From the NCBI RefSeq assembly GCF_024223415.1, contig NZ_CP100504.1: a stretch of 63,428 nt of DNA; one strand, 5' to 3'. The notes beneath the pieces were generated by a model. It was not told the origin of the DNA. It did not search any database and saw only the letters and a list, made by a program, of their open reading frames with translations. Made by a program: the position numbers and the translations under genes. This document shows, piece after piece, positions 1-58,244 of the stretch. Position 1 is the stretch's first letter, and each line of letters begins with the position of its first letter. Origin of the DNA: Escherichia coli. Lineage in GTDB: Bacteria; Pseudomonadota; Gammaproteobacteria; Enterobacterales; Enterobacteriaceae.

Positions 1-858
1 GTGACTGATCTTCAACAAACGTATTACCGCCAGGTAAAGAACCCGAATCCGGTGTTCACACCCCGTGAAGGTGCCGGAACGCTGAAGTTTTGCGAAAAAC
101 TGATGGAAAAGGCGGTGGGCTTCACCTCCCGTTTTGATTTCGCCATTCATGTGGCACACGCCCGTTCGCGTGGTCTGCGCCGGCGCATGCCGCCGGTACT
201 GCGTCGACGGGCCATTGATGCGCTGCTGCAGGGGCTGTGTTTCCACTATGACCCGCTGGCCAACCGCGTCCAGTGCTCCATCACCACACTGGCCATTGAG
301 TGCGGACTGGCGACGGAGTCTGCTGCCGGAAAACTCTCTATCACCCGTGCCACCCGCGCCCTGACGTTCCTCGCAGAGCTGGGCCTGATTACCTACCAGA
401 CGGAATATGACCCGCTTATCGGGTGCTACATTCCGACCGACATCACGTTCACACCGGCACTGTTTGCCGCTCTCGATGTGTCTGAGGTGGCGGTGGCAGC
501 TGCGCGCCGCAGTCGTGTGGAATGGGAAAACAGACAGCGCAAGAAGCAGGGACTGGATGCACTGGGTATGGATGAACTGATAGCGAAAGCCTGGCGTTTT
601 GTGCGTGAGCGTTTCCGCAGTTACCAGACAGAGCTTAAGTCCCGGGGAATAAAGCGTGCCCGTGCGCGTCGTGATGCGGACAGGGAACGTCAGGATATTG
701 TCACCCTGGTGAAACGGCAGCTGACGCGCGAAATCGCGGAAGGGCGCTTCACTGCTAATCGTGAGGCAGTAAAACGCGAAGTGGAGCGTCGTGTGAAGGA
801 GCGCATGATTCTGTCACGTAACCGTAATTACAGCCGGCTGGCCACAGCTTCCCCCTGA
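1..858 (+). CDS. repA1: IncFII replication initiator RepA1
   Basis: 285-aa ORF with GTG start at base 1; translation matches the RepA1 initiator of R100/R1-type plasmids; start overlaps the end of the tap leader peptide that begins at 63362. Confidence 0.9.
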
Positions 859-1926: not shown

Positions 1927-2190
1927 ATGAATAGCACCACACATTACGAAAACGCCAATTTCCTGCGCGAGCTGGCCGAAAGCCTGCCTCGTATTTTTCC
2001 AGAAGGCAGTACAGACAAGTCTGCACTATTGCAACGCCTCGCTAATGAAGAACTGGCACGGGCGGAATACGACGAACAGATCCGAGCGAAAGTTGCCGCT
2101 GCTCGCGCCGATAAGCGGCCGGGAATGAGTTCCGTGCAACTGCGCCAGCAACTACAGGGACGTTATCAGGAACTGCGCAATGAGTTATGA
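1927..2190 (+). CDS. putative antitoxin partnered with ParE/RelE-family toxin
   Basis: 87-aa ORF overlapping the downstream toxin ORF by 11 nt; small, helical-looking protein; classic type II TA arrangement. Confidence 0.55.
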   Translation: MNSTTHYENANFLRELAESLPRIFPEGSTDKSALLQRLANEELARAEYDEQIRAKVAAARADKRPGMSSVQLRQQLQGRYQELRNEL

Positions 2191-2479
2191 AATAGAATGG
2201 CGACCAGGTGCGATTGAGGATATAACGGCGTTGTTTGAATATCTGGCCGAGAATGCATCTCTTTGGGATGCAAGGAACGTGACAGAGCGTCTGATCACTG
2301 CAACCGATCGTCTGGCAGATTACCCCAGGCTGTATGAAACAGATGAACGCTATGGCGAAGGGGTTCGCCGTATTAGCTTACTTGGGCAGCATGTACTTTA
2401 TGAAGTGAATGATAAGGCCCGTCGTGTCAATATCCTGGCGGTTGTAGGCCAGCGTCAGAATCCCCGATTCATTCTTTGA
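2180..2479 (+). CDS. ParE/RelE-family toxin (plasmid stabilisation)
   Basis: 99-aa ORF with a ParE/RelE-like sequence pattern, translationally coupled to the upstream small ORF. Confidence 0.7.
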   Translation: MSYEIEWRPGAIEDITALFEYLAENASLWDARNVTERLITATDRLADYPRLYETDERYGEGVRRISLLGQHVLYEVNDKARRVNILAVVGQRQNPRFIL

Positions 2480-2626
2480 GTGCCCGGCTTGATGCGGGCT
2501 TACCAGGAATCACGGTTTGGGAGCCGCCTGGAGAAATGAAATTTTCCCATGCTAAGAGTATTGAGTTGAACTAGTAGAATTGACAATTCAAAAACTGAGA
2601 ACATGAAGAAACCCTATACGTCTGTC

Positions 2627-2670
2627 ATACTCGCTCGTAAGCGGCCCTGAAGGCTCGCTTACTCGACATC
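2627..2670. repeat. ~32-bp direct repeat, right copy, flanking the TA module
   Basis: Partner of the 1458-1495 repeat; lies just downstream of the ParE/RelE toxin gene. Confidence 0.7.
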
Positions 2671-2836
2671 CGTTAGTTATAACGTCAGAAGAATTATCGA
2701 GCTTTACTCAAGATCTTCTTCGTCAATCTCCAGCCATCCACGATAAGCTGACTCTGTATCTTTCACATCGTTTTGAGTCATATCAGCATTGCGTAGAAAA
2801 TTAAAAGCTGCCGCACAAAATTGATCTTCCAGGTAT

Positions 2837-3112
2837 TTGAAATACTCCAAACCTATATCCAGCCCCAGCTGCTTTGGCGAGAGAATATCAACTGAACTGG
2901 AGTTCGTCAGAAAAATCTGCCGGGCTGAAGGTGAAACTGAGGCTGATGACGATAAATTAGTGGATGAATTTCGTCGATTAGCTGAACACCCTGATGGTTC
3001 TGATCTTATTTATTATCCAAGGGATGACCGTGAGGACAGTCATGAAGGTATCGTAAAAGAAGTGAAGGAATGGCGAGCCAAAAACGGCAAGCCGGGGTTT
3101 AAACAGGGCTGA
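2837..3112 (+). CDS. colicin/pyocin DNase-type immunity protein (Im family), orphan
   Basis: C-terminal two thirds resemble Im2/Im7/Im9 immunity proteins (HPDGSDLIYYP ... EWRAKNGKPGFKQG); N-terminus atypical; no nuclease colicin gene in the window. Confidence 0.6.
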   Translation: MKYSKPISSPSCFGERISTELEFVRKICRAEGETEADDDKLVDEFRRLAEHPDGSDLIYYPRDDREDSHEGIVKEVKEWRAKNGKPGFKQG

Positions 3113-3164
3113 GGATCTTTGCTAAAGGATTAGCTGAAAATATGGATACCAGCTGTTCACTTCC

Positions 3165-3186
3165 AGAGCGGGCTGTTGCCCGCTCT
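3165..3186. terminator. stem-loop between convergent imm and MFS genes
   Basis: Perfect inverted repeat agagcgggc-tgtt-gcccgctct lying between the imm stop (3112) and the MFS stop (3190). Confidence 0.5.
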
Positions 3187-3189
3187 GCG

Positions 3190-4422
3190 TCATGTTGCCG
3201 CCAGCGGGCGACAGATCGCCCGCAGGGCGACGGCGCTGCACAGCGGAAACAGCGCCAGCAGAAGCCAGGGATAAACCGCCTGCGGCGACGGAATGAGCGC
3301 CTGGTCAAGTAAATGACCGAGCAGTAAATTCCCGGCTAACACCGCGCACCCTCCTGCGGTGGCGAGCGCTCCGTAGTGGGCGCCCAGCGTCGACTCCTCG
3401 GCGAACAGCGGGATCAGATCCTTGGCTGCGGGCACTAACAGCATCTGGCCGAGGGTGAGCAGCGTGACAAAACCAGCCGCCGGCATTAACCGCAGCCAAC
3501 TTTCGGCGGGTGGGGCGGCGGCGAATAACGCCACGCTGGCAAAGGAAGCCGACAGCAGCAGAAAGCCCACCGGCAGGATGCGCACGGCGCCCATTCGCCG
3601 GGCGAAGCGGGCGAGAGGGAGCTGGAGGGTGATAATCAACAGCGAGGCCAGCATAAAGAGCGGCGCCAGATCCTGCTCGCGGCCGCCGGAACGTTGGATC
3701 TCCACCGGCAGAGCGAGGTAGAGTTGGTTGTAGCTCAACAGCCATGAGCTGTAGGCGAGAATAAACGCGACAAAGCGCGGCTGGCGCAAAGGCGTCCACC
3801 ATGGGACTCGTCTGCGCGTTGTTGTCGTGTGCCCGTCGGCGGGCAGACCGAAAAAGAGCACCGCCAGCGCCAGAAGAAATATTCCCGCGCCGGCGAGGGC
3901 GATATGTCGAAAGCCGATCCCGCTCAGCACGCCTCCGGCCACCGGGCCGATCACCGCTCCCAGTTCACCGCATACCGCAAACAGCGCAAACCACTCGGCG
4001 CGGCTGCGTTTCCCGTTGGCCTGGCTGTGGGTACCGGCCCGCGCCAGCAGGGCCTCTATCGACGGGGAGAACAGGGCGCCGCCGACGCCGGTCAGGCAGG
4101 CGCCAAGGATAATGGCCCACAGCGACGCCCCGCACGCCAGCAGGAGAAAACCGGCGACGCGAACGACGCAGCCGGCGAGAATGATCGCCTTAGCGCCATA
4201 GCGGTCGGCCAGCGTCCCGCCGAGGATAAACATCCCCTGTTGGGAGAAGGTACGCAGCCCGAGGATCAGGCCGATAAGTCCGCCTGAGAGCAGCATGTCG
4301 TCGCGCAGGAAGAGGGCGAGGAAAGGTACGACCGCGTAAAAGCCAATATTAAAAACGAACTGGCTTCCCAGTAACACCGGAGGCCAGAGGGTTGCCGCAG
4401 GGCGCAGGGAGAAAAGAGGCAT
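3190..4422 (-). CDS. eitD: MFS transporter, EitD-like
   Basis: Multi-pass membrane protein; likely start is the internal Met (MPLFSL) 12 nt after the upstream ATPase stop; last gene of a four-gene operon in eitABCD order. Confidence 0.55.
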   Translation of the reverse strand: MPLFSLRPAATLWPPVLLGSQFVFNIGFYAVVPFLALFLRDDMLLSGGLIGLILGLRTFSQQGMFILGGTLADRYGAKAIILAGCVVRVAGFLLLACGASLWAIILGACLTGVGGALFSPSIEALLARAGTHSQANGKRSRAEWFALFAVCGELGAVIGPVAGGVLSGIGFRHIALAGAGIFLLALAVLFFGLPADGHTTTTRRRVPWWTPLRQPRFVAFILAYSSWLLSYNQLYLALPVEIQRSGGREQDLAPLFMLASLLIITLQLPLARFARRMGAVRILPVGFLLLSASFASVALFAAAPPAESWLRLMPAAGFVTLLTLGQMLLVPAAKDLIPLFAEESTLGAHYGALATAGGCAVLAGNLLLGHLLDQALIPSPQAVYPWLLLALFPLCSAVALRAICRPLAAT

Positions 4423-4433
4423 ATCCGCCCAAC

Positions 4434-5198
4434 CTAAACGATGAAATGAATGTGCTTTTTGCCGTGGTAAGGGGAGATCTCGATTTTGGTTTTCACCCGG
4501 AAAACGTCCCACAGCAGCGCTTCGGACAAAATCTCCTCCGGCGTCCCGCTGGCGAGGATCTGCCCCTGCTGCATCACGATCAGCGAATCGCAGAACATCG
4601 CGGCATGGTTAAGATCGTGAATGGCCACAATGCTGGTTACCGGCAGCTCGCTGATCAACTGCATTAACTGCATCTGATGGTGTATATCCAGATGGTTGGT
4701 CGGCTCATCCAGCAGGATTTCGCTCGGGCTCTGCGCCAGCGCGCGGGCGATATGCACCCGCTGCCGCTCGCCGCCGGAGAGGCTTAACCATCCCTGTTCG
4801 CTTTTCTCCAGCATAGCTACCCGCTGCAGCGCGGCGGCAATCGCTTCGTCATCCTGAGCGCTCCAGTTTGAGAACGGAGAGTGGTGGGGAATGCGTCCCA
4901 GGCGCACGACGTCGCGCACCCGCATATTGGCCTCGGTCATGCCGTGTTGCTCGACGCAAGCCACGCGGCGGGCGAGCTGCTTTTTCGCCATCCGGGCGAT
5001 ATCCTGGCCGTCGAGGGTGACGCGACCTGCATCCGGGCGGCGCAGGCCCGCCAGAACGCGCAGCAGCGAGGATTTGCCGCAGCCGTTGGGCCCCAGCAGT
5101 CCGACCGTTTCGCCGCGCGGCACCCGCAGCGAGACATTATTGACGATGACCTTTTTGCCTGCCTTCCAGGTGATATTTTCAGCGCAAATACTCATCAC
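4434..5198 (-). CDS. eitC: ABC transporter ATP-binding protein (iron-siderophore type), EitC-like
   Basis: 254 aa with Walker A GPNGCGKSS, ABC signature LSGGERQR and Walker B LLDEP. Confidence 0.6.
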   Translation of the reverse strand: MMSICAENITWKAGKKVIVNNVSLRVPRGETVGLLGPNGCGKSSLLRVLAGLRRPDAGRVTLDGQDIARMAKKQLARRVACVEQHGMTEANMRVRDVVRLGRIPHHSPFSNWSAQDDEAIAAALQRVAMLEKSEQGWLSLSGGERQRVHIARALAQSPSEILLDEPTNHLDIHHQMQLMQLISELPVTSIVAIHDLNHAAMFCDSLIVMQQGQILASGTPEEILSEALLWDVFRVKTKIEISPYHGKKHIHFIV

Positions 5199-6232
5199 TT
5201 ATTCCTTGAGCGGTAGATAATCACGGCAAAGAAAGGCACCCCAACCAGGGCGGTTACTACCCCAACGGGCAGACTTTGCGGGGCAATCAGCAGGCGCGAC
5301 GCAATGTCCGCCAGTACCATCAATATCGCCCCTGCCAGCGCGCTGGCGATCAGCAACGTTCGGTGCAGCGGGCCAAAGAAGAAACGCATCACGTGCGGCA
5401 CCACCAGGCCAACAAAGCCGATTGAGCCGGCCATGCTGACGATGGTGGCGGTGATCAGCGCCGCAGTGGTGAAGAGGATCAGGCGCACGCGCGGCACAGC
5501 AATCCCCAGCGAGGCGGCGGCATCGTCGCCGAAGGTGAACGCGTCCAGCGCCCGGGCATACCACAGGCAGACCGCCAGACCCGCGAGCACCACCACGATG
5601 ACCAACTGGAATTCGGGCCAGCGGACGCCGCTGAAGCTGCCCAGCAGCCAGAACATCACATCGCGCGCCTGCTGCGCGCTGGCGGTGGTGCTGATGGTAT
5701 AGGCCGTGATGGCGTTAAATAACTGCGAGGCGGCGACGCCCGCAAGAATCGTACGCTCATTGCCGCCGCGCGCGCCGTTAGTCAGCAAGGCGACAAAGGC
5801 GAAGGCGGCGAAGGCCCCGGCAAAGGCGCCTGCCGAGAGGGAAATTGCGCCAGAGCCAAGGCCCAGCACCACGATCGACACCGCGCCGGTGGAGGCCCCG
5901 GCGGAGACGCCGAGGACGTAGGGTTCGGCGAGGGCATTCTTCAGCAAGCTTTGCAGCACGACACCGCAGATAGCGAGGCCGGCGCCGCAGCAGGCGGCGA
6001 CCAGCGCGCGGCTGAGGCGGAAATCCCAGATAACGCTCTCATAGATATGGTTGAGCGGCTCAGCGGTTAAGCCGGTTCTGTTGCTGATAGCATAAAAGAC
6101 ATTCTGCAGCGGGATGGCCAGCTCGCCAACGCTGACGCCCACAGCGATCACCAGCGCCAGCACGATCGCTGCCAGTATACACCAGCCGGTGAGCAGTATG
6201 CTGCGGCACGTCTCAATCGCGCCGACGCTCAT
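5195..6232 (-). CDS. eitB: ABC transporter permease (FecCD family), EitB-like
   Basis: 345-aa polytopic membrane protein; stop and start overlap the flanking operon genes. Confidence 0.6.
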   Translation of the reverse strand: MSVGAIETCRSILLTGWCILAAIVLALVIAVGVSVGELAIPLQNVFYAISNRTGLTAEPLNHIYESVIWDFRLSRALVAACCGAGLAICGVVLQSLLKNALAEPYVLGVSAGASTGAVSIVVLGLGSGAISLSAGAFAGAFAAFAFVALLTNGARGGNERTILAGVAASQLFNAITAYTISTTASAQQARDVMFWLLGSFSGVRWPEFQLVIVVVLAGLAVCLWYARALDAFTFGDDAAASLGIAVPRVRLILFTTAALITATIVSMAGSIGFVGLVVPHVMRFFFGPLHRTLLIASALAGAILMVLADIASRLLIAPQSLPVGVVTALVGVPFFAVIIYRSRNK

Positions 6233-7230
6233 CAGTTCAGCCCCATTTTTCTCAGCTGCTCGCCCACCTGCTCCGCGCCGTAAAGCGTGCGAATGGTCGG
6301 ATTCATCGCCTGACCGTCCATGACCACGATATGGCCTTTTTTCACCGCCTCCAGCTGGCTGACGGCGGGATCGCTTTTGAGGAATTTGATCTTCTCCTCG
6401 GCTTTATCCAGCGCCCAGCGGTTACGATCCAGGCTGGCGACCACGATCACATCCGGGTTGGCGGCAATAATGCTCTCCCAGCTCACCGTGGGCCACTCGG
6501 TTTCGGAGGTAATCGCATTATGTCCGCCCAGCACGCTGGCGATAAATCCGGAGGCGCTGTTTTTGCCGCCGACATAGGCATCGGCCGAAGGTGAGGCGCT
6601 GGAGAACCAGAAGACGAAGGAGAGATCCTTTTTGCTTTTACCAAACTCCTGGCGCAGGTCGGCTTCACGTTTTTTGAAATCGGCAATCAGCGCCTGACCA
6701 CGATCTTCGACGTTGAAAATGCGGGAAAAATCGCTAATTTCCTGATACAGCCAGGTCATATCCCACAGCTTTTGCCGGCTGCCGTACATATCGCCGGTGG
6801 CCTTTTTGGTGGCGCATACCCCCGGTGAGAGGTAGCTGTTCACGCCGACGGTGGCGAGATCTTCACGCCTGGCGACTTTGCTTTCCGGCCCCAGCAGCAG
6901 CGGCAACTGGGCGGGAACGAAATCAGGATTTTGCGCCAGCACCGATTCCAGGCTCGGAATTTCCACCGTCAAGGTTTTAATCTTCGCGTTTTGCTCAGCC
7001 AGCTGCGGTAAAACGCTGTTCGGCCAGAAGGCGCTGGCGACCACCTGCTTTTGCAGCCCGAGCAGCAGCAGAATTTCGACCGTATTTTGCCCCAGCGCGA
7101 CCACGCGCTCCGGCGGCCGGGTGAAGGTCTCCTGATAGCCGCAGTTTTCAATCGTCAGGGGGTAGGTTGTTGCCAGCGCGGAACTGACGGCGGTGAACAT
7201 CAAGCCTAACGCGCAAAGGATCTTCTTCAT
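6232..7230 (-). CDS. eitA: periplasmic substrate-binding protein, EitA-like
   Basis: 332 aa with an N-terminal signal peptide (MKKILCALGLMFTAVSSALA); first gene of the operon. Confidence 0.6.
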   Translation of the reverse strand: MKKILCALGLMFTAVSSALATTYPLTIENCGYQETFTRPPERVVALGQNTVEILLLLGLQKQVVASAFWPNSVLPQLAEQNAKIKTLTVEIPSLESVLAQNPDFVPAQLPLLLGPESKVARREDLATVGVNSYLSPGVCATKKATGDMYGSRQKLWDMTWLYQEISDFSRIFNVEDRGQALIADFKKREADLRQEFGKSKKDLSFVFWFSSASPSADAYVGGKNSASGFIASVLGGHNAITSETEWPTVSWESIIAANPDVIVVASLDRNRWALDKAEEKIKFLKSDPAVSQLEAVKKGHIVVMDGQAMNPTIRTLYGAEQVGEQLRKMGLN

Positions 7231-7304: not shown

Positions 7305-7382
7305 GCGGGGTTTTATACAATGCCATATTTACAGTGTCAATGTGTTCTTGCCCCCTTATTTCCAGACAGGGGTTGTATCTTA

Positions 7383-7535
7383 AGTTAATGTTACCCGCTG
7401 ACGTCGATATTCTCGCGGAGAGCGATAACCCAACGCACTGTGCGGATGGTTTTCATTGTAATGTTCGATCGCCACTGCAAGATTATGCAATGCCGTTCTT
7501 ACATTCGGTTTCGGCATGAACGCGATGTAGTCTTC
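7383..7535 (-). mobile_element. IS transposase C-terminal remnant (DDE integrase core end)
   Basis: Minus-strand frame reads ...[46 protein letters not shown], typical of the C-terminus of IS3-family-like transposases; no upstream part present. Confidence 0.45.
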
Positions 7536-34994: not shown

Positions 34995-35377
34995 CCATAA
35001 CGCAAAAAACGACTGACGTTACAGCCCCCCGACGCAGCCACTGGTGGTGGACGGTGCCGGGATACCTGGCAATGGTGTTACTGAACGCAGCCATCAGTTA
35101 CGGCATTGTCAGACTGAACGCACCGGTGACTGCCGCCTTCAACATGAAACAGACCGTGGATGCGTTTTTTGACAGCGCCAGTCAGAAACAACTGTCAGAA
35201 GCACAGTCAAAAGCCCTTTCAGCGCGTTTTAACACGGCACTGGAAGCCAGCCTGCAGGCGTGGCAGCAGAAACACCACGCGGTCATTCTGGTGTCGCCTG
35301 CTGTGGTACAGGGGGCACCGGATATCACCCGGGAAATCCAGCAGGATATTGCCCGGCGAATGAGGGCGGAGCCATGA
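34991..35377 (+). CDS. trbI: TrbI
   Basis: 128-aa membrane protein coupled to traC and traW by overlapping stop and start codons. Confidence 0.85.
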   Translation: MTITQKTTDVTAPRRSHWWWTVPGYLAMVLLNAAISYGIVRLNAPVTAAFNMKQTVDAFFDSASQKQLSEAQSKALSARFNTALEASLQAWQQKHHAVILVSPAVVQGAPDITREIQQDIARRMRAEP

Positions 35378-55900: not shown

Positions 55901-58244
55901 CACCCGCATGATACTGGAAACGTCCGACCGTTTCACGGTGGTGCAGGGCTATGCCGGTGTGGGTAAGACCACACAGTTCCGGGCGGTGATGTCAGCCGTG
56001 AACATGCTGCCGGAGAGTGAGCGTCCCCGTGTCGTTGGGCTGGGTCCCACGCACCGCGCGGTCGGGGAGATGCGCAGCGCCGGCGTGGATGCACAGACAC
56101 TGGCGTCCTTTCTGCATGACACGCAGCTGCAGCAGCGCAGCGGAGAAACGCCGGATTTCAGCAACACGCTGTTCCTGCTCGATGAGAGCTCAATGGTGGG
56201 CAATACCGACATGGCACGGGCATACGCCCTGATTGCGGCCGGTGGCGGTCGTGCTGTGGCCAGCGGTGACACGGACCAGCTGCAGGCCATCGCGCCCGGT
56301 CAGCCTTTCCGTCTCCAGCAGACGCGCAGTGCTGCCGATGTGGTCATCATGAAGGAGATTGTGCGTCAGACGCCGGAACTGCGGGAGGCGGTATACAGCC
56401 TGATTAACCGGGATGTGGAAAGGGCACTGTCCGGGCTTGAGAGTGTGAAACCGTCTCAGGTTCCCCGTCAGGAGGGCGCATGGGCACCGGAGCACTCCGT
56501 GACGGAGTTCAGTCACAGCCAGGAAGCGAAACTGGCAGAAGCGCAGCAGAAGGCGATGCTGAAAGGCGAGGCTTTCCCGGATATCCCCATGACACTGTAT
56601 GAAGCCATTGTCCGCGACTATACCGGCAGGACACCGGAAGCACGGGAGCAGACGCTGATTGTCACACACCTGAATGAGGACCGGCGCGTACTGAACAGCA
56701 TGATTCATGATGCACGGGAAAAGGCCGGTGAGCTGGGCAAAGAGCAGGTCATGGTGCCTGTCCTGAACACAGCGAATATACGTGACGGAGAACTGCGTCG
56801 TCTCTCCACCTGGGAGAATAACCCGGATGCCCTTGCCCTGGTGGATAGTGTGTATCACCGGATTGCCGGTATCAGCAAGGATGACGGGCTGATAACCCTG
56901 GAGGATGCGGAAGGTAACACGCGGCTGATTTCGCCCCGGGAGGCGGTGGCTGAAGGCGTCACACTGTACACCCCGGACACCATCCGGGTGGGAACCGGTG
57001 ACCGGATGCGCTTCACGAAGAGTGACCGGGAGCGCGGTTATGTGGCCAACAGCGTCTGGACGGTGACAGCGGTTTCCGGTGACAGTGTCACGCTGTCGGA
57101 CGGACAGCAGACCCGGGTGATTCGCCCCGGTCAGGAGCGGGCAGAGCAACATATTGACCTGGCTTATGCCATCACCGCCCACGGTGCGCAGGGGGCAAGT
57201 GAAACCTTTGCCATCGCGCTTGAAGGCACGGAAGGTAACCGGAAACTGATGGCAGGCTTTGAGTCAGCTTATGTAGCCCTGTCGCGTATGAAGCAGCATG
57301 TGCAGGTGTACACCGATAACCGTCAGGGCTGGACGGATGCCATCAACAATGCCGTACAGAAAGGAACTGCCCACGATGTGTTTGAACCGAAACCGGACCG
57401 GGAGGTCATGAATGCAGAGCGGCTGTTCAGTACGGCGCGGGAGCTGCGGGACGTGGCGGCAGGCCGTGCCGTTCTTCGTCAGGCGGGACTTGCCGGGGGA
57501 GACAGTCCTGCACGGTTTATTGCTCCGGGACGTAAATATCCGCAACCGTATGTGGCACTGCCGGCTTTTGACCGTAACGGCAGGTCCGCCGGTATCTGGC
57601 TGAACCCGCTGACCACGGATGACGGAAACGGGCTGCGGGGATTCAGCGGTGAAGGCCGGGTGAAAGGCAGCGGGGATGCACAGTTTGTGGCCCTGCAGGG
57701 CAGCCGTAACGGAGAGAGCCTGCTGGCTGATAATATGCAGGATGGTGTCCGGATTGCCCGTGATAATCCTGACAGCGGTGTGGTGGTGAGAATCGCCGGT
57801 GAAGGCCGTCCGTGGAATCCCGGTGCCATCACCGGTGGTCGCGTGTGGGGGGATATCCCGGACAACAGCGTCCAGCCGGGGGCCGGAAATGGTGAACCGG
57901 TTACAGCTGAAGTGCTGGCACAGCGGCAGGCTGAAGAGGCCATCCGCCGTGAAACGGAACGTCGCGCAGATGAAATTGTCCGTAAAATGGCAGAGAACAA
58001 ACCTGACCTGCCGGATGGCAGAACAGAGCAGGCTGTCAGGGAGATTGCCGGGCAGGAGCGTGACCGGGCTGCCATAACTGAACGGGAAGCCGCGCTGCCG
58101 GAGAGTGTGCTGCGTGAATCACAACGGGAGCGGGAAGCGGTCCGGGAGGTTGCCCGGGAAAATCTGCTGCAGGAGCGTCTGCAGCAGATGGAGCGGGATA
58201 TGGTCCGTGACCTGCAGAAAGAGAAAACCCTGGGCGGAGACTGA
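52974..58244 (+). CDS. traI: relaxase/helicase TraI
   Basis: 1756 aa starting [27 protein letters not shown] (relaxase domain) followed by helicase motifs. Confidence 0.95.
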   Translation: MMSIAQVRSAGSAGNYYTDKDNYYVLGSMGERWAGRGAEQLGLQGSVDKDVFTRLLEGRLPDGADLSRMQDGSNKHRPGYDLTFSAPKSVSMMAMLGGDKRLIEAHNQAVDFAVRQVEALASTRVMTDGQSETVLTGNLVMALFNHDTSRDQEPQLHTHAVVANVTQHNGEWKTLSSDKVGKTGFIENVYANQIAFGRLYREKLKEQVEALGYETEVVGKHGMWEMPGVPVEAFSGRSQTIREAVGEDASLKSRDVAALDTRKSKQHVDPEVRMAEWMQTLKETGFDIRAYRDAVDQRAETRTQAPGAVSQEGPDVQQAVTQAIAGLSERKMQFTYTDVLARTVGILPPENGVIERARAGIDEAISREQLIPLDREKGLFTSGIHVLDELSVRALSRDIMKQNRVTVHLEKSVPRTAGYSDAVSVLAQDRPSLAIVSGQGGAAGQRERVAELVMMAREQGREVQIIAADRRSQMNLKQDERLSGELITGRRQLQEGMAFTPGSTVIVDQGEKLSLKETLTLLDGAARHNVQVLITDSGQRTGTGSALMAMKDAGVNTYRWQGGEQRPATIISEPDRNVRYDRLAGDFAASVKAGEESVAQVSGVREQAILTQAIRSELKTQGVLGHPEVTMTALSPVWLDSRSRYLRDMYRPGMVMEQWNPETRSHDRYVIDRVTAQSHSLTLRDAQGETQVVRISSLDSSWSLFRPEKMPVADGERLRVTGKIPGLRVSGGDRLQVASVSEDAMTVVVPGRAEPATLPVADSPFTALKLENGWVETPGHSVSDSAKVFASVTQMAMDNATLNGLARSGRDVRLYSSLDETRTAEKLARHPSFTVVSEQIKARAGETLLETAISLQKAGLHTPAQQAIHLALPVLESKNLAFSMVDLLTEAKSFAAEGTSFTELGGEINAQIKRGDLLYVDVAKGYGTGLLVSRASYEAEKSILRHILEGKEAVTPLMERVPGELMEKLTSGQRAATRMILETSDRFTVVQGYAGVGKTTQFRAVMSAVNMLPESERPRVVGLGPTHRAVGEMRSAGVDAQTLASFLHDTQLQQRSGETPDFSNTLFLLDESSMVGNTDMARAYALIAAGGGRAVASGDTDQLQAIAPGQPFRLQQTRSAADVVIMKEIVRQTPELREAVYSLINRDVERALSGLESVKPSQVPRQEGAWAPEHSVTEFSHSQEAKLAEAQQKAMLKGEAFPDIPMTLYEAIVRDYTGRTPEAREQTLIVTHLNEDRRVLNSMIHDAREKAGELGKEQVMVPVLNTANIRDGELRRLSTWENNPDALALVDSVYHRIAGISKDDGLITLEDAEGNTRLISPREAVAEGVTLYTPDTIRVGTGDRMRFTKSDRERGYVANSVWTVTAVSGDSVTLSDGQQTRVIRPGQERAEQHIDLAYAITAHGAQGASETFAIALEGTEGNRKLMAGFESAYVALSRMKQHVQVYTDNRQGWTDAINNAVQKGTAHDVFEPKPDREVMNAERLFSTARELRDVAAGRAVLRQAGLAGGDSPARFIAPGRKYPQPYVALPAFDRNGRSAGIWLNPLTTDDGNGLRGFSGEGRVKGSGDAQFVALQGSRNGESLLADNMQDGVRIARDNPDSGVVVRIAGEGRPWNPGAITGGRVWGDIPDNSVQPGAGNGEPVTAEVLAQRQAEEAIRRETERRADEIVRKMAENKPDLPDGRTEQAVREIAGQERDRAAITEREAALPESVLRESQREREAVREVARENLLQERLQQMERDMVRDLQKEKTLGGD

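Follow-up and report, generated by a model that had tools for sequence, protein, structure and literature searches.

The window, which is the whole stretch of DNA that was analyzed (63,428 nucleotides), is mosaic IncFII conjugative plasmid sequence. According to the ORF list and the RefSeq annotation, it starts with the gene of the IncFII replication initiator RepA (1..858, + strand), which is followed by the IncFII backbone genes for a PaaA2-like antitoxin (a weak match) and a ParE toxin (1927..2479, + strand). On the same strand and approximately 2 kb downstream of repA, and thus beside the replicon as the original prediction had it, lies an ORF with a TTG start codon (2837..3112), whose predicted product of 91 amino acids, which includes the peptide MKYSKPISSPSCFGER, is labeled “bacteriocin immunity protein” in RefSeq. 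An in-frame stop codon is located at 2822-2824, five codons 5′ of this TTG. The ORF converges with an eitDCBA-like iron-uptake operon (3190..7230, − strand), which encodes an MFS protein, an ABC ATPase, a FecCD permease, and a periplasmic binding protein, and which PGAP annotates with the names eitC and eitD in a single record; the immunity gene lies at the edge of this eit module. Between the convergent immunity and eitD-like genes there is a perfect 10-bp hairpin (3164..3187; CAGAGCGGGC-TGTT-GCCCGCTCTG) with a 4-nt loop, 3 nt from the eitD stop codon. The hairpin has no T-run and for this reason was not flagged by the terminator scan. Just past eitA, the translation of a short ORF (7380-7517, − strand) resembles the C-terminal end of an IS3-family transposase, which suggests that an IS remnant bounds the far side of the eit module. 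The larger ORFs at 8-23 kb encode ParM, DUF1281, DUF3560, a methyltransferase, SSB, a ParB-like protein, PsiA, and DUF932; the tra region extends over ~38-63 kb, and the sizeable non-tra ORFs are ordinary IncF backbone genes.

The ORF at 2837..3112 is already known from RefSeq and hence is no new gene: many plasmids, including pAA of E. coli 042, carry exactly this ORF as “bacteriocin immunity protein”, whereby WP_000877662.1 is the allele with the His form of the window and WP_000877663.1 the one with the Pro form. The Pfam family Colicin_Pyocin (PF01320) matched residues 21-89 of the ORF with 100.6 bits (E=5.2e-29; profile positions 14-82 of 82), the curated cut-off being 21.2 bits. The top PDB match was the colicin E2 immunity protein (2no8, E=5.8e-37, query 20-91 vs Im2 15-86), and designed Im variants, Im7, Im9, the pyocin S2 immunity protein, and Im8 ranked lower. 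Residues 21-91 share 83% identity over 71 amino acids with an Im2-like protein. These matches confirm that the C-terminal part belongs to the Im2/7/8/9 family, as had been proposed, and the N-terminus proved to be as atypical as it had been described: the first 20 residues match no family member among 5.8 billion proteins. Since in this search the family members outside the ORF’s own 90% cluster aligned to only ~76-78% of the query, residues 1-20 are unique to this ORF. A complete PF01320 domain of ~85 amino acids is not present in the ORF; its N-terminal segment and the start of helix I are replaced.

As a criterion for immunity genes of this family, a position directly downstream (≤60 bp) of the cognate HNH DNase toxin gene has been used (PMC5536347), and in the window no such toxin gene was found within this distance upstream of the ORF. 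The whole window was also searched by tblastn with a full E-type colicin, the DNase-domain remnant described below, three colicin lysis proteins, and an E3-type cytotoxin fragment together with its immunity protein as queries. No DNase, colicin, or lysis homologue was detected (best E=0.37, the immunity gene itself aside), which agrees with the earlier statement that the whole plasmid carries no colicin or lysis gene.

The recombination junction and its two parental sequences

The ORF is composed of two parts that meet at a blunt recombination junction (2896..2897) without microhomology between the parental sequences. The immunity-derived part (2897..3112, + strand) comprises codons 15-85 and the stop codon of an 85-aa colicin/pyocin DNase immunity gene, whereby window 2897-3109 corresponds to residues 15-85 of the intact protein with 70 of 71 identities (tblastn). 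In the DNA alignment, the match to plasmid pSA186_2 (98%) begins exactly at position 2897 of the window, corresponding to codon 15 in the intact gene, and the shared 216 nt contain three differing sites. In a sensitive DNA search, a second class of IncF plasmids likewise matched the window (~98%) only from 2897 onward.

[quoted passage not shown] Its 3′ remnant, codons 153-215 and the stop codon, occupies 2704..2896 on the − strand, and the translation of window 2707-2895 (−) and residues 153-215 of the 215-aa protein are identical throughout (100%). Then follows the 3′ flank of the gene (2666..2703, −), and the homology to two plasmids with the intact gene (L007 and L008) stops at ~2666. Intact copies of the 215-aa gene are present in an IncK2/Z plasmid (L007) and in IncF plasmids (L008, L027). 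The unrearranged backbone can be seen in the UPEC132 plasmid (L027), where repA is followed by the same antitoxin gene, the ParE-family toxin gene, and the intact, convergent 215-aa gene. In the window, the minus-strand frame of the remnant is open across the junction, to 2919. The 20 codons of the novel N-terminal part of the ORF (2837..2896, + strand; MKYSKPISSPSCFGERISTE) are antisense of this remnant, read from the TTG. The 48-aa “hypothetical protein” WP_001337002.1 (2704..2850, −), which appears in some RefSeq records, is the tail of the truncated 215-aa gene.

Thus, the immunity gene is short at one end compared to its full-length homologues and is joined to unrelated DNA, with both parents identified. 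A disrupted true ORF had been named in the original prediction as the finding that would speak against a protective gene, and this disruption is what the junction presents: the first 14 codons are replaced. An internal deletion in an otherwise complete gene was considered as well, as ISTELEF resembles ISDYTEAEFLEF; it was rejected, since the DNA upstream follows the antisense of the 215-aa gene with 100% identity up to the junction.

With both parental sequences identified at the junction, the backbone was therefore joined to the eit module by a single illegitimate recombination. In the lineage of the window, this event fused the IncFII backbone with a module consisting of an HNH remnant, the immunity gene, and the eit genes. 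The backbone gene thereby lost its 5′ 456 nt, and the immunity side lost the DNase remnant, the first 42 nt (14 codons), the ATG, and the Shine-Dalgarno sequence. The antisense of the backbone gene, open in frame by chance from the TTG, yields the 91-aa ORF that is called by annotation pipelines.

To the left of the 215-aa gene remnant, a segment of ~60 bp (window 2605-2665) shows 82-86% identity to hundreds of IncF plasmids. In Shigella flexneri virulence plasmids, this segment overlaps the end of a fragment that is annotated as a 91-aa “S-type pyocin domain-containing protein” (L028, 2746-3021) and presents another bacteriocin remnant next to the IncF replicon region.

The intact allele and the search for a cognate toxin

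An intact immunity gene of 85 codons (MEKKTISDYTEAEFLEFVRK...) is located at the same site in pSA186_2 (L003, 4959..5216) and pMTY1886_NA1 (L004), where it adjoins the same MFS/ABC iron-transport operon (eitABCD). Directly 5′ of it lies the C-terminal part of an HNH DNase gene (Pfam PF21431 Col-Pyo_DNase, E=3e-32, profile positions 44-124 of 124; L003 4623-4958 in pSA186_2). This remnant has a length of 77-111 amino acids and lacks roughly the first third of the DNase domain; the whole HNH motif ELHH...N...HHIEIH is kept. Remnant and intact immunity gene follow each other without a gap in 9 of the 10 contexts shown, and in the tenth (L016) no DNase gene was called upstream. The intact protein was found in more than 10,000 index blocks, and near-identical copies of the DNase remnant were found by tblastn in 69 PLSDB records. 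The ColV-type IncFIB/FIC plasmids with the intact allele (for example pSA186_2, NZ_CP022731, with WP_000412701.1 and WP_000451769.1) share the locus and the eitD gene with the window, and from 2897 on the DNA of the pSA186_2 allele is 98-99% identical. However, this allele possesses the ATG, the Shine-Dalgarno sequence, all 85 residues, and the upstream DNase remnant, none of which is present in the window.

The ancestral arrangement accordingly reads: C-terminal remnant of an HNH Col-Pyo DNase and intact 85-aa immunity gene, converging on eitD. It is kept in many large ColV-type IncF plasmids. As the toxin is already destroyed in this arrangement, the immunity gene was an orphan even before it was truncated. 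It might be that the HNH remnant is mildly toxic in the intact lineage and thereby holds the immunity gene in place there, and that the fragment in the window is the leftover of such a small addiction pair, which either has no role anymore or neutralizes the HNH fragments of co-resident ColV-type plasmids. The Col-Pyo_DNase match with its complete HNH motif and the position of the remnant directly in front of the intact gene are in line with this idea. We nevertheless regard it as very improbable, as it is purely inferential and the remnant is without roughly the first third of the DNase domain. Moreover, no promoter-like site was found for the remnant (in the consensus scan described below, which has low power), and the idea makes no positive statement on function in the window, where the remnant is absent.

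The search for the cognate toxin was carried out with the DNase remnant as query. In PLSDB (tblastn), the matches beyond the remnants with at least 99% identity dropped to at most ~60% identity. In the search of 5.8 billion proteins only fragments of up to 136 amino acids were obtained, whereby distant full-length relatives may escape this search because it uses a word index. Toxins from Klebsiella aerogenes, with 66% identity in the DNase domain, were reached only via the 90% cluster of the immunity protein. In chromosomal contigs of K. aerogenes (L023-L026), an immunity protein is encoded directly after an intact bacteriocin of 652-690 amino acids within a lambdoid prophage. The toxin stop codon abuts the immunity start codon, as is the case for the remnant in pSA186_2 (L003). 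By annotation, the bacteriocin consists of Pyocin_S and Col-Pyo_DNase domains in two of the four contexts; the other two toxins are without a precomputed Pfam hit. Counted position by position, the K. aerogenes immunity protein (P0148) and the intact E. coli allele show 11 differences in 85 residues.

These prophage pairs are the closest intact toxin-immunity modules that we found, and they share D34 and D38 of helix II with the E. coli allele. Unlike the window gene, they are untruncated, possess a full-length toxin, are located in a chromosomal prophage, and have no eit neighbor. The plasmid DNase remnant is 66% identical to the K. aerogenes DNase vs 52% to that of an E-type colicin, and no homology to the lysis-gene region of Col plasmids was found in the alignment 3′ of the immunity stop codon. 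On the basis of these sequence relationships, an S-type-pyocin/klebicin-like bacteriocin is a more probable ancestor of the module than an E colicin operon of the classical kind. The K. aerogenes pair (~2700-6260 in L023-L026) is immediately preceded by a tail-fibre-like gene (Gp34_trimer/Peptidase_S74) and is located in the interval from the O/P replication genes to the nin region.

N-terminus, specificity helix, and expression signals

The immunity-derived part of the ORF retains helices II-IV and most of helix I. Im proteins bind tightly to an exosite of the HNH DNase through helices II and III, whereby helix II and the loop between helices I and II set the specificity and helix III is a conserved anchor (PMC7884437). 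In the ORF, the helix II specificity region and the helix III anchor are both present, with helices predicted at residues 35-49 and 56-59; the alignment also showed the anchor sequence SDLIYYP and the C-terminal WRAxNGKPGFKQG. A comparison with the Im family, in particular of the specificity-determining helix, had been suggested together with the original prediction. It revealed that helix II is there and that it differs from Im2 by N34D, R38D, and E41R, plus A28E, E31A, and T44A (Im2 numbering). Because of these differences, colicin E2 is not expected to be the cognate partner. Positions 34 and 38 of the ORF agree with the K. aerogenes immunity protein.

The N-terminal end presents a different picture. 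Im2 (PDB 2no8, 3u43), Im7, Im8, and Im9 have an N-terminal segment (Im numbering 1-15) that includes the start of helix I and an invariant Phe, whereas the ORF has 20 unrelated residues instead. Among 54 full-length relatives, the 14 lost residues hold the invariant E11 and F14, which are 2 of the 13 invariant positions, as well as I6, Y9, T10, and E13, each of which is at least 90% conserved. Residue 69 of the window protein, where helix IV begins, is His instead of a Pro with at least 90% conservation. Since the pAA allele of strain 042 still has Pro, His69 arose within the chimeric lineage, in which the His form is the commonest; the exact window protein was found in at least 1000 contigs. 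Further variants of the chimeric lineage at conserved positions (S55P, G54A, D67N) and shortened forms occur among the 15 of 29 cluster members listed.

The structures of the intact and the chimeric protein were predicted by AlphaFold2 with essentially the same alignment, whereby the resulting pLDDT values describe confidence and are no measure of stability. The intact protein reached a mean pLDDT of 93.1 and a pTM of 0.84, with an ordered N-terminus that is bridged to the C-terminus. For the chimera, the mean pLDDT was 73.9 and the pTM 0.61, with values below 50 for residues 1-15 and lower values over the whole domain. Four helices are still drawn in the chimera, and the new residues 14-20 prolong helix I. 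The N-terminal strand of the intact protein, which packs on the C-terminus, is absent.

With the native ATG and the Shine-Dalgarno sequence gone, the ORF has a TTG as its start. The anti-Shine-Dalgarno duplex at this TTG amounts to −3.8 kcal/mol at 1-nt spacing, which is at background level (median −3.0 kcal/mol over all 3304 start-like triplets in the window). For comparison, five reference immunity-gene starts were folded, and four of them reached −6.0 to −8.4 kcal/mol with 7-8 nt between duplex and start codon. The remaining value, −7.4 kcal/mol at 1 nt, belongs to the ATG that is annotated for the Im2-like gene of plasmid pSTEC17_190-a (L010), and this ATG may be a mis-called start. A consensus scan found no promoter-like site on the + strand near the ORF. 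The same scan found none for the intact allele either; it thus has little power and cannot show a promoter loss. The scan around the gene predicted no terminator in the stretch from the ParE operon to the ORF. Read-through transcription from the ParE operon into the ORF is possible, and the ParE toxin-antitoxin pair is the only plausible source for it. There is no LexA-like box (CTGT-N8-CAG) near the ORF, the nearest ones being at 1200 and 9239. In the whole window, this motif occurs 16 times vs 7.35 expected, a number that was reached in none of 100 shuffles; perfectly palindromic sites are located at 1200-1214, 35192-35206, 56758-56772, and 57093-57107, one of them near the replication origin region.

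It could also be that the region acts as DNA or RNA, for instance as a spacer or terminator region by which eitD is shielded from the side of the replicon, and that the ORF is incidental. The hairpin just past the eitD stop codon would fit such a role, as it remains on the eit side in a plasmid that has no immunity gene (L029). However, the hairpin is not part of the ORF and lacks a U-run, plasmids that have lost the immunity part still have the eit operon, and the RNA folding of 2480-2860 is not above that of shuffled sequence (z=-0.59), with no sign of a riboregulator or terminator. We therefore give this explanation hardly any credit.

The ORF itself is a 5′-truncated, chimeric remnant of an immunity gene, carried as a passenger at the edge of eitABCD, and we suggest that it is probably not a working immunity determinant. 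The product is probably made poorly and folds poorly, because the native ribosome-binding site and probably also the native promoter are missing, the start is weak, E11, F14, and the N-terminal strand are lost, and His takes the place of Pro. The proposal that the orphan gene could protect the host is weakened thereby: helices II and III, on which protection would depend, are indeed intact, yet with 14 codons, the ATG, and the ribosome-binding site lost, protection is less likely than decay.

Distribution and decay of the locus

The chimera was found in 32 of 5426 complete E. coli genomes and in ~48 PLSDB plasmids from E. coli, Shigella, Klebsiella, Salmonella, and E. albertii; most carriers have an uninterrupted ORF. 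All chimeric copies are at least 99% identical and have one common junction, so they go back to one recent event that was spread by a successful plasmid. Overall, four states were found at the edge of the eit module: the remnant with the intact gene, the chimera, an IS1 stump, and the absence of the gene. The stump is present in a sister plasmid, where an IS1A insertion leaves only what corresponds to window 2937-3112; PGAP annotates it as a pseudogene with “missing N-terminus”. Other plasmids have no immunity gene, and there ISEcp1-blaCTX-M-14 directly adjoins the position of window 3112. Thus, further decay is seen in relatives of the window plasmid. The CTX-M-14 IncF plasmids present an exact boundary, as the ISEcp1-blaCTX-M-14 unit meets the eit module at the last base of the immunity stop codon (L029 3501, equal to window 3112).

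The comparisons show, at the level of sequence, a truncated chimeric gene that had lost its toxin earlier, that arose in one recombination event, and that is carried together with eitABCD on a successful IncFII backbone. The locus can be described as the staged decay of a bacteriocin module that travels with the eitABCD iron-uptake island, and the useful outcome of the analysis is the exact anatomy of the locus together with this decay series. It also has a value for annotation, since RefSeq names the ORF an immunity protein without flagging the chimera, whereas the IS1-truncated sister copy is flagged as a pseudogene.

Alternatively, the chimera could still be functional as an orphan immunity gene: low expression, for which read-through from the ParE operon would be one source, would give a protein with the four-helix Im fold that protects the host against HNH-DNase bacteriocins of competitors. 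We consider this unlikely, although several observations are consistent with it. The family match is strong, helices II and III with the DNase contacts are complete, four helices are still predicted, and the helix II residues resemble those of an immunity protein that belongs to an intact prophage bacteriocin of K. aerogenes. The unbroken ORF is widespread across genera, and no terminator is predicted in front of it. Furthermore, the binding of Im proteins to their DNases is in general extremely tight (PMC7884437), so that little of a marginally stable protein might suffice, and a case has been published for the maintenance of orphan immunity genes on E. coli plasmids, including genes beside heavily truncated toxins (PMC12546727). 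On the other hand, the native start, the Shine-Dalgarno sequence, and 14 N-terminal residues with the invariant E11 and F14 are gone, the window allele has His where Pro is nearly invariant, and the AlphaFold confidence is reduced over the whole domain. Sister plasmids lose more or all of the gene with no apparent consequence, and the shared junction at no less than 99% identity argues for one recent event rather than for repeated retention. In addition, no cognate toxin was found in PLSDB or in the 5.8-billion-protein search. It seems improbable to us that the fusion gave a read-through immunity protein that is still functional and confers low-level cross-protection against HNH DNase bacteriocins of the pyocin-S/klebicin type, such as those of the K. 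aerogenes prophages. If this were true, immunity would have outlived the loss of both the toxin and its own N-terminus, and the first 14 residues including the invariant Phe would be dispensable for protection, which would be a modest surprise with regard to the Im fold.

Taken as a decaying remnant, the ORF likely no longer gives useful immunity, a conclusion that we infer from the features described above. Its DNA would persist by linkage to a successful plasmid backbone and to the eit operon and not by protection of the host.

Work on the orphan immunity genes of E. coli plasmids is already established (PMC12546727). Literature searches for eitABCD in combination with “immunity protein”, and for “colicin E2 immunity” in combination with IncF, yielded nothing specific to this gene. 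Like the window gene, the orphans described in PMC12546727 are located on conjugative plasmids without a cognate toxin, and some of them adjoin heavily truncated toxin genes that are common to many plasmids; unlike them, the immunity gene of the window is itself truncated too. The published survey required more than 99% identity to toxin-adjacent immunity genes and reported one DNase-type orphan only (PMC12546727); due to this identity requirement, it would miss the window gene. In the published debate on whether toxin loss or the selected gain of immunity stands behind orphan genes, the evidence from this locus favors loss and hitch-hiking.

An example of stacked as well as orphan immunity genes is provided by the small Col plasmid pSTEC17_190-a (L010, 1004-4578). 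Here, a first block consists of a gene annotated “colicin-E2”, an Im8-like immunity gene, and a lysis gene, in this order, and a second block contains an E3-type cytotoxin fragment, an E3-like immunity gene, the Im2-like immunity gene mentioned above, and a second lysis gene.
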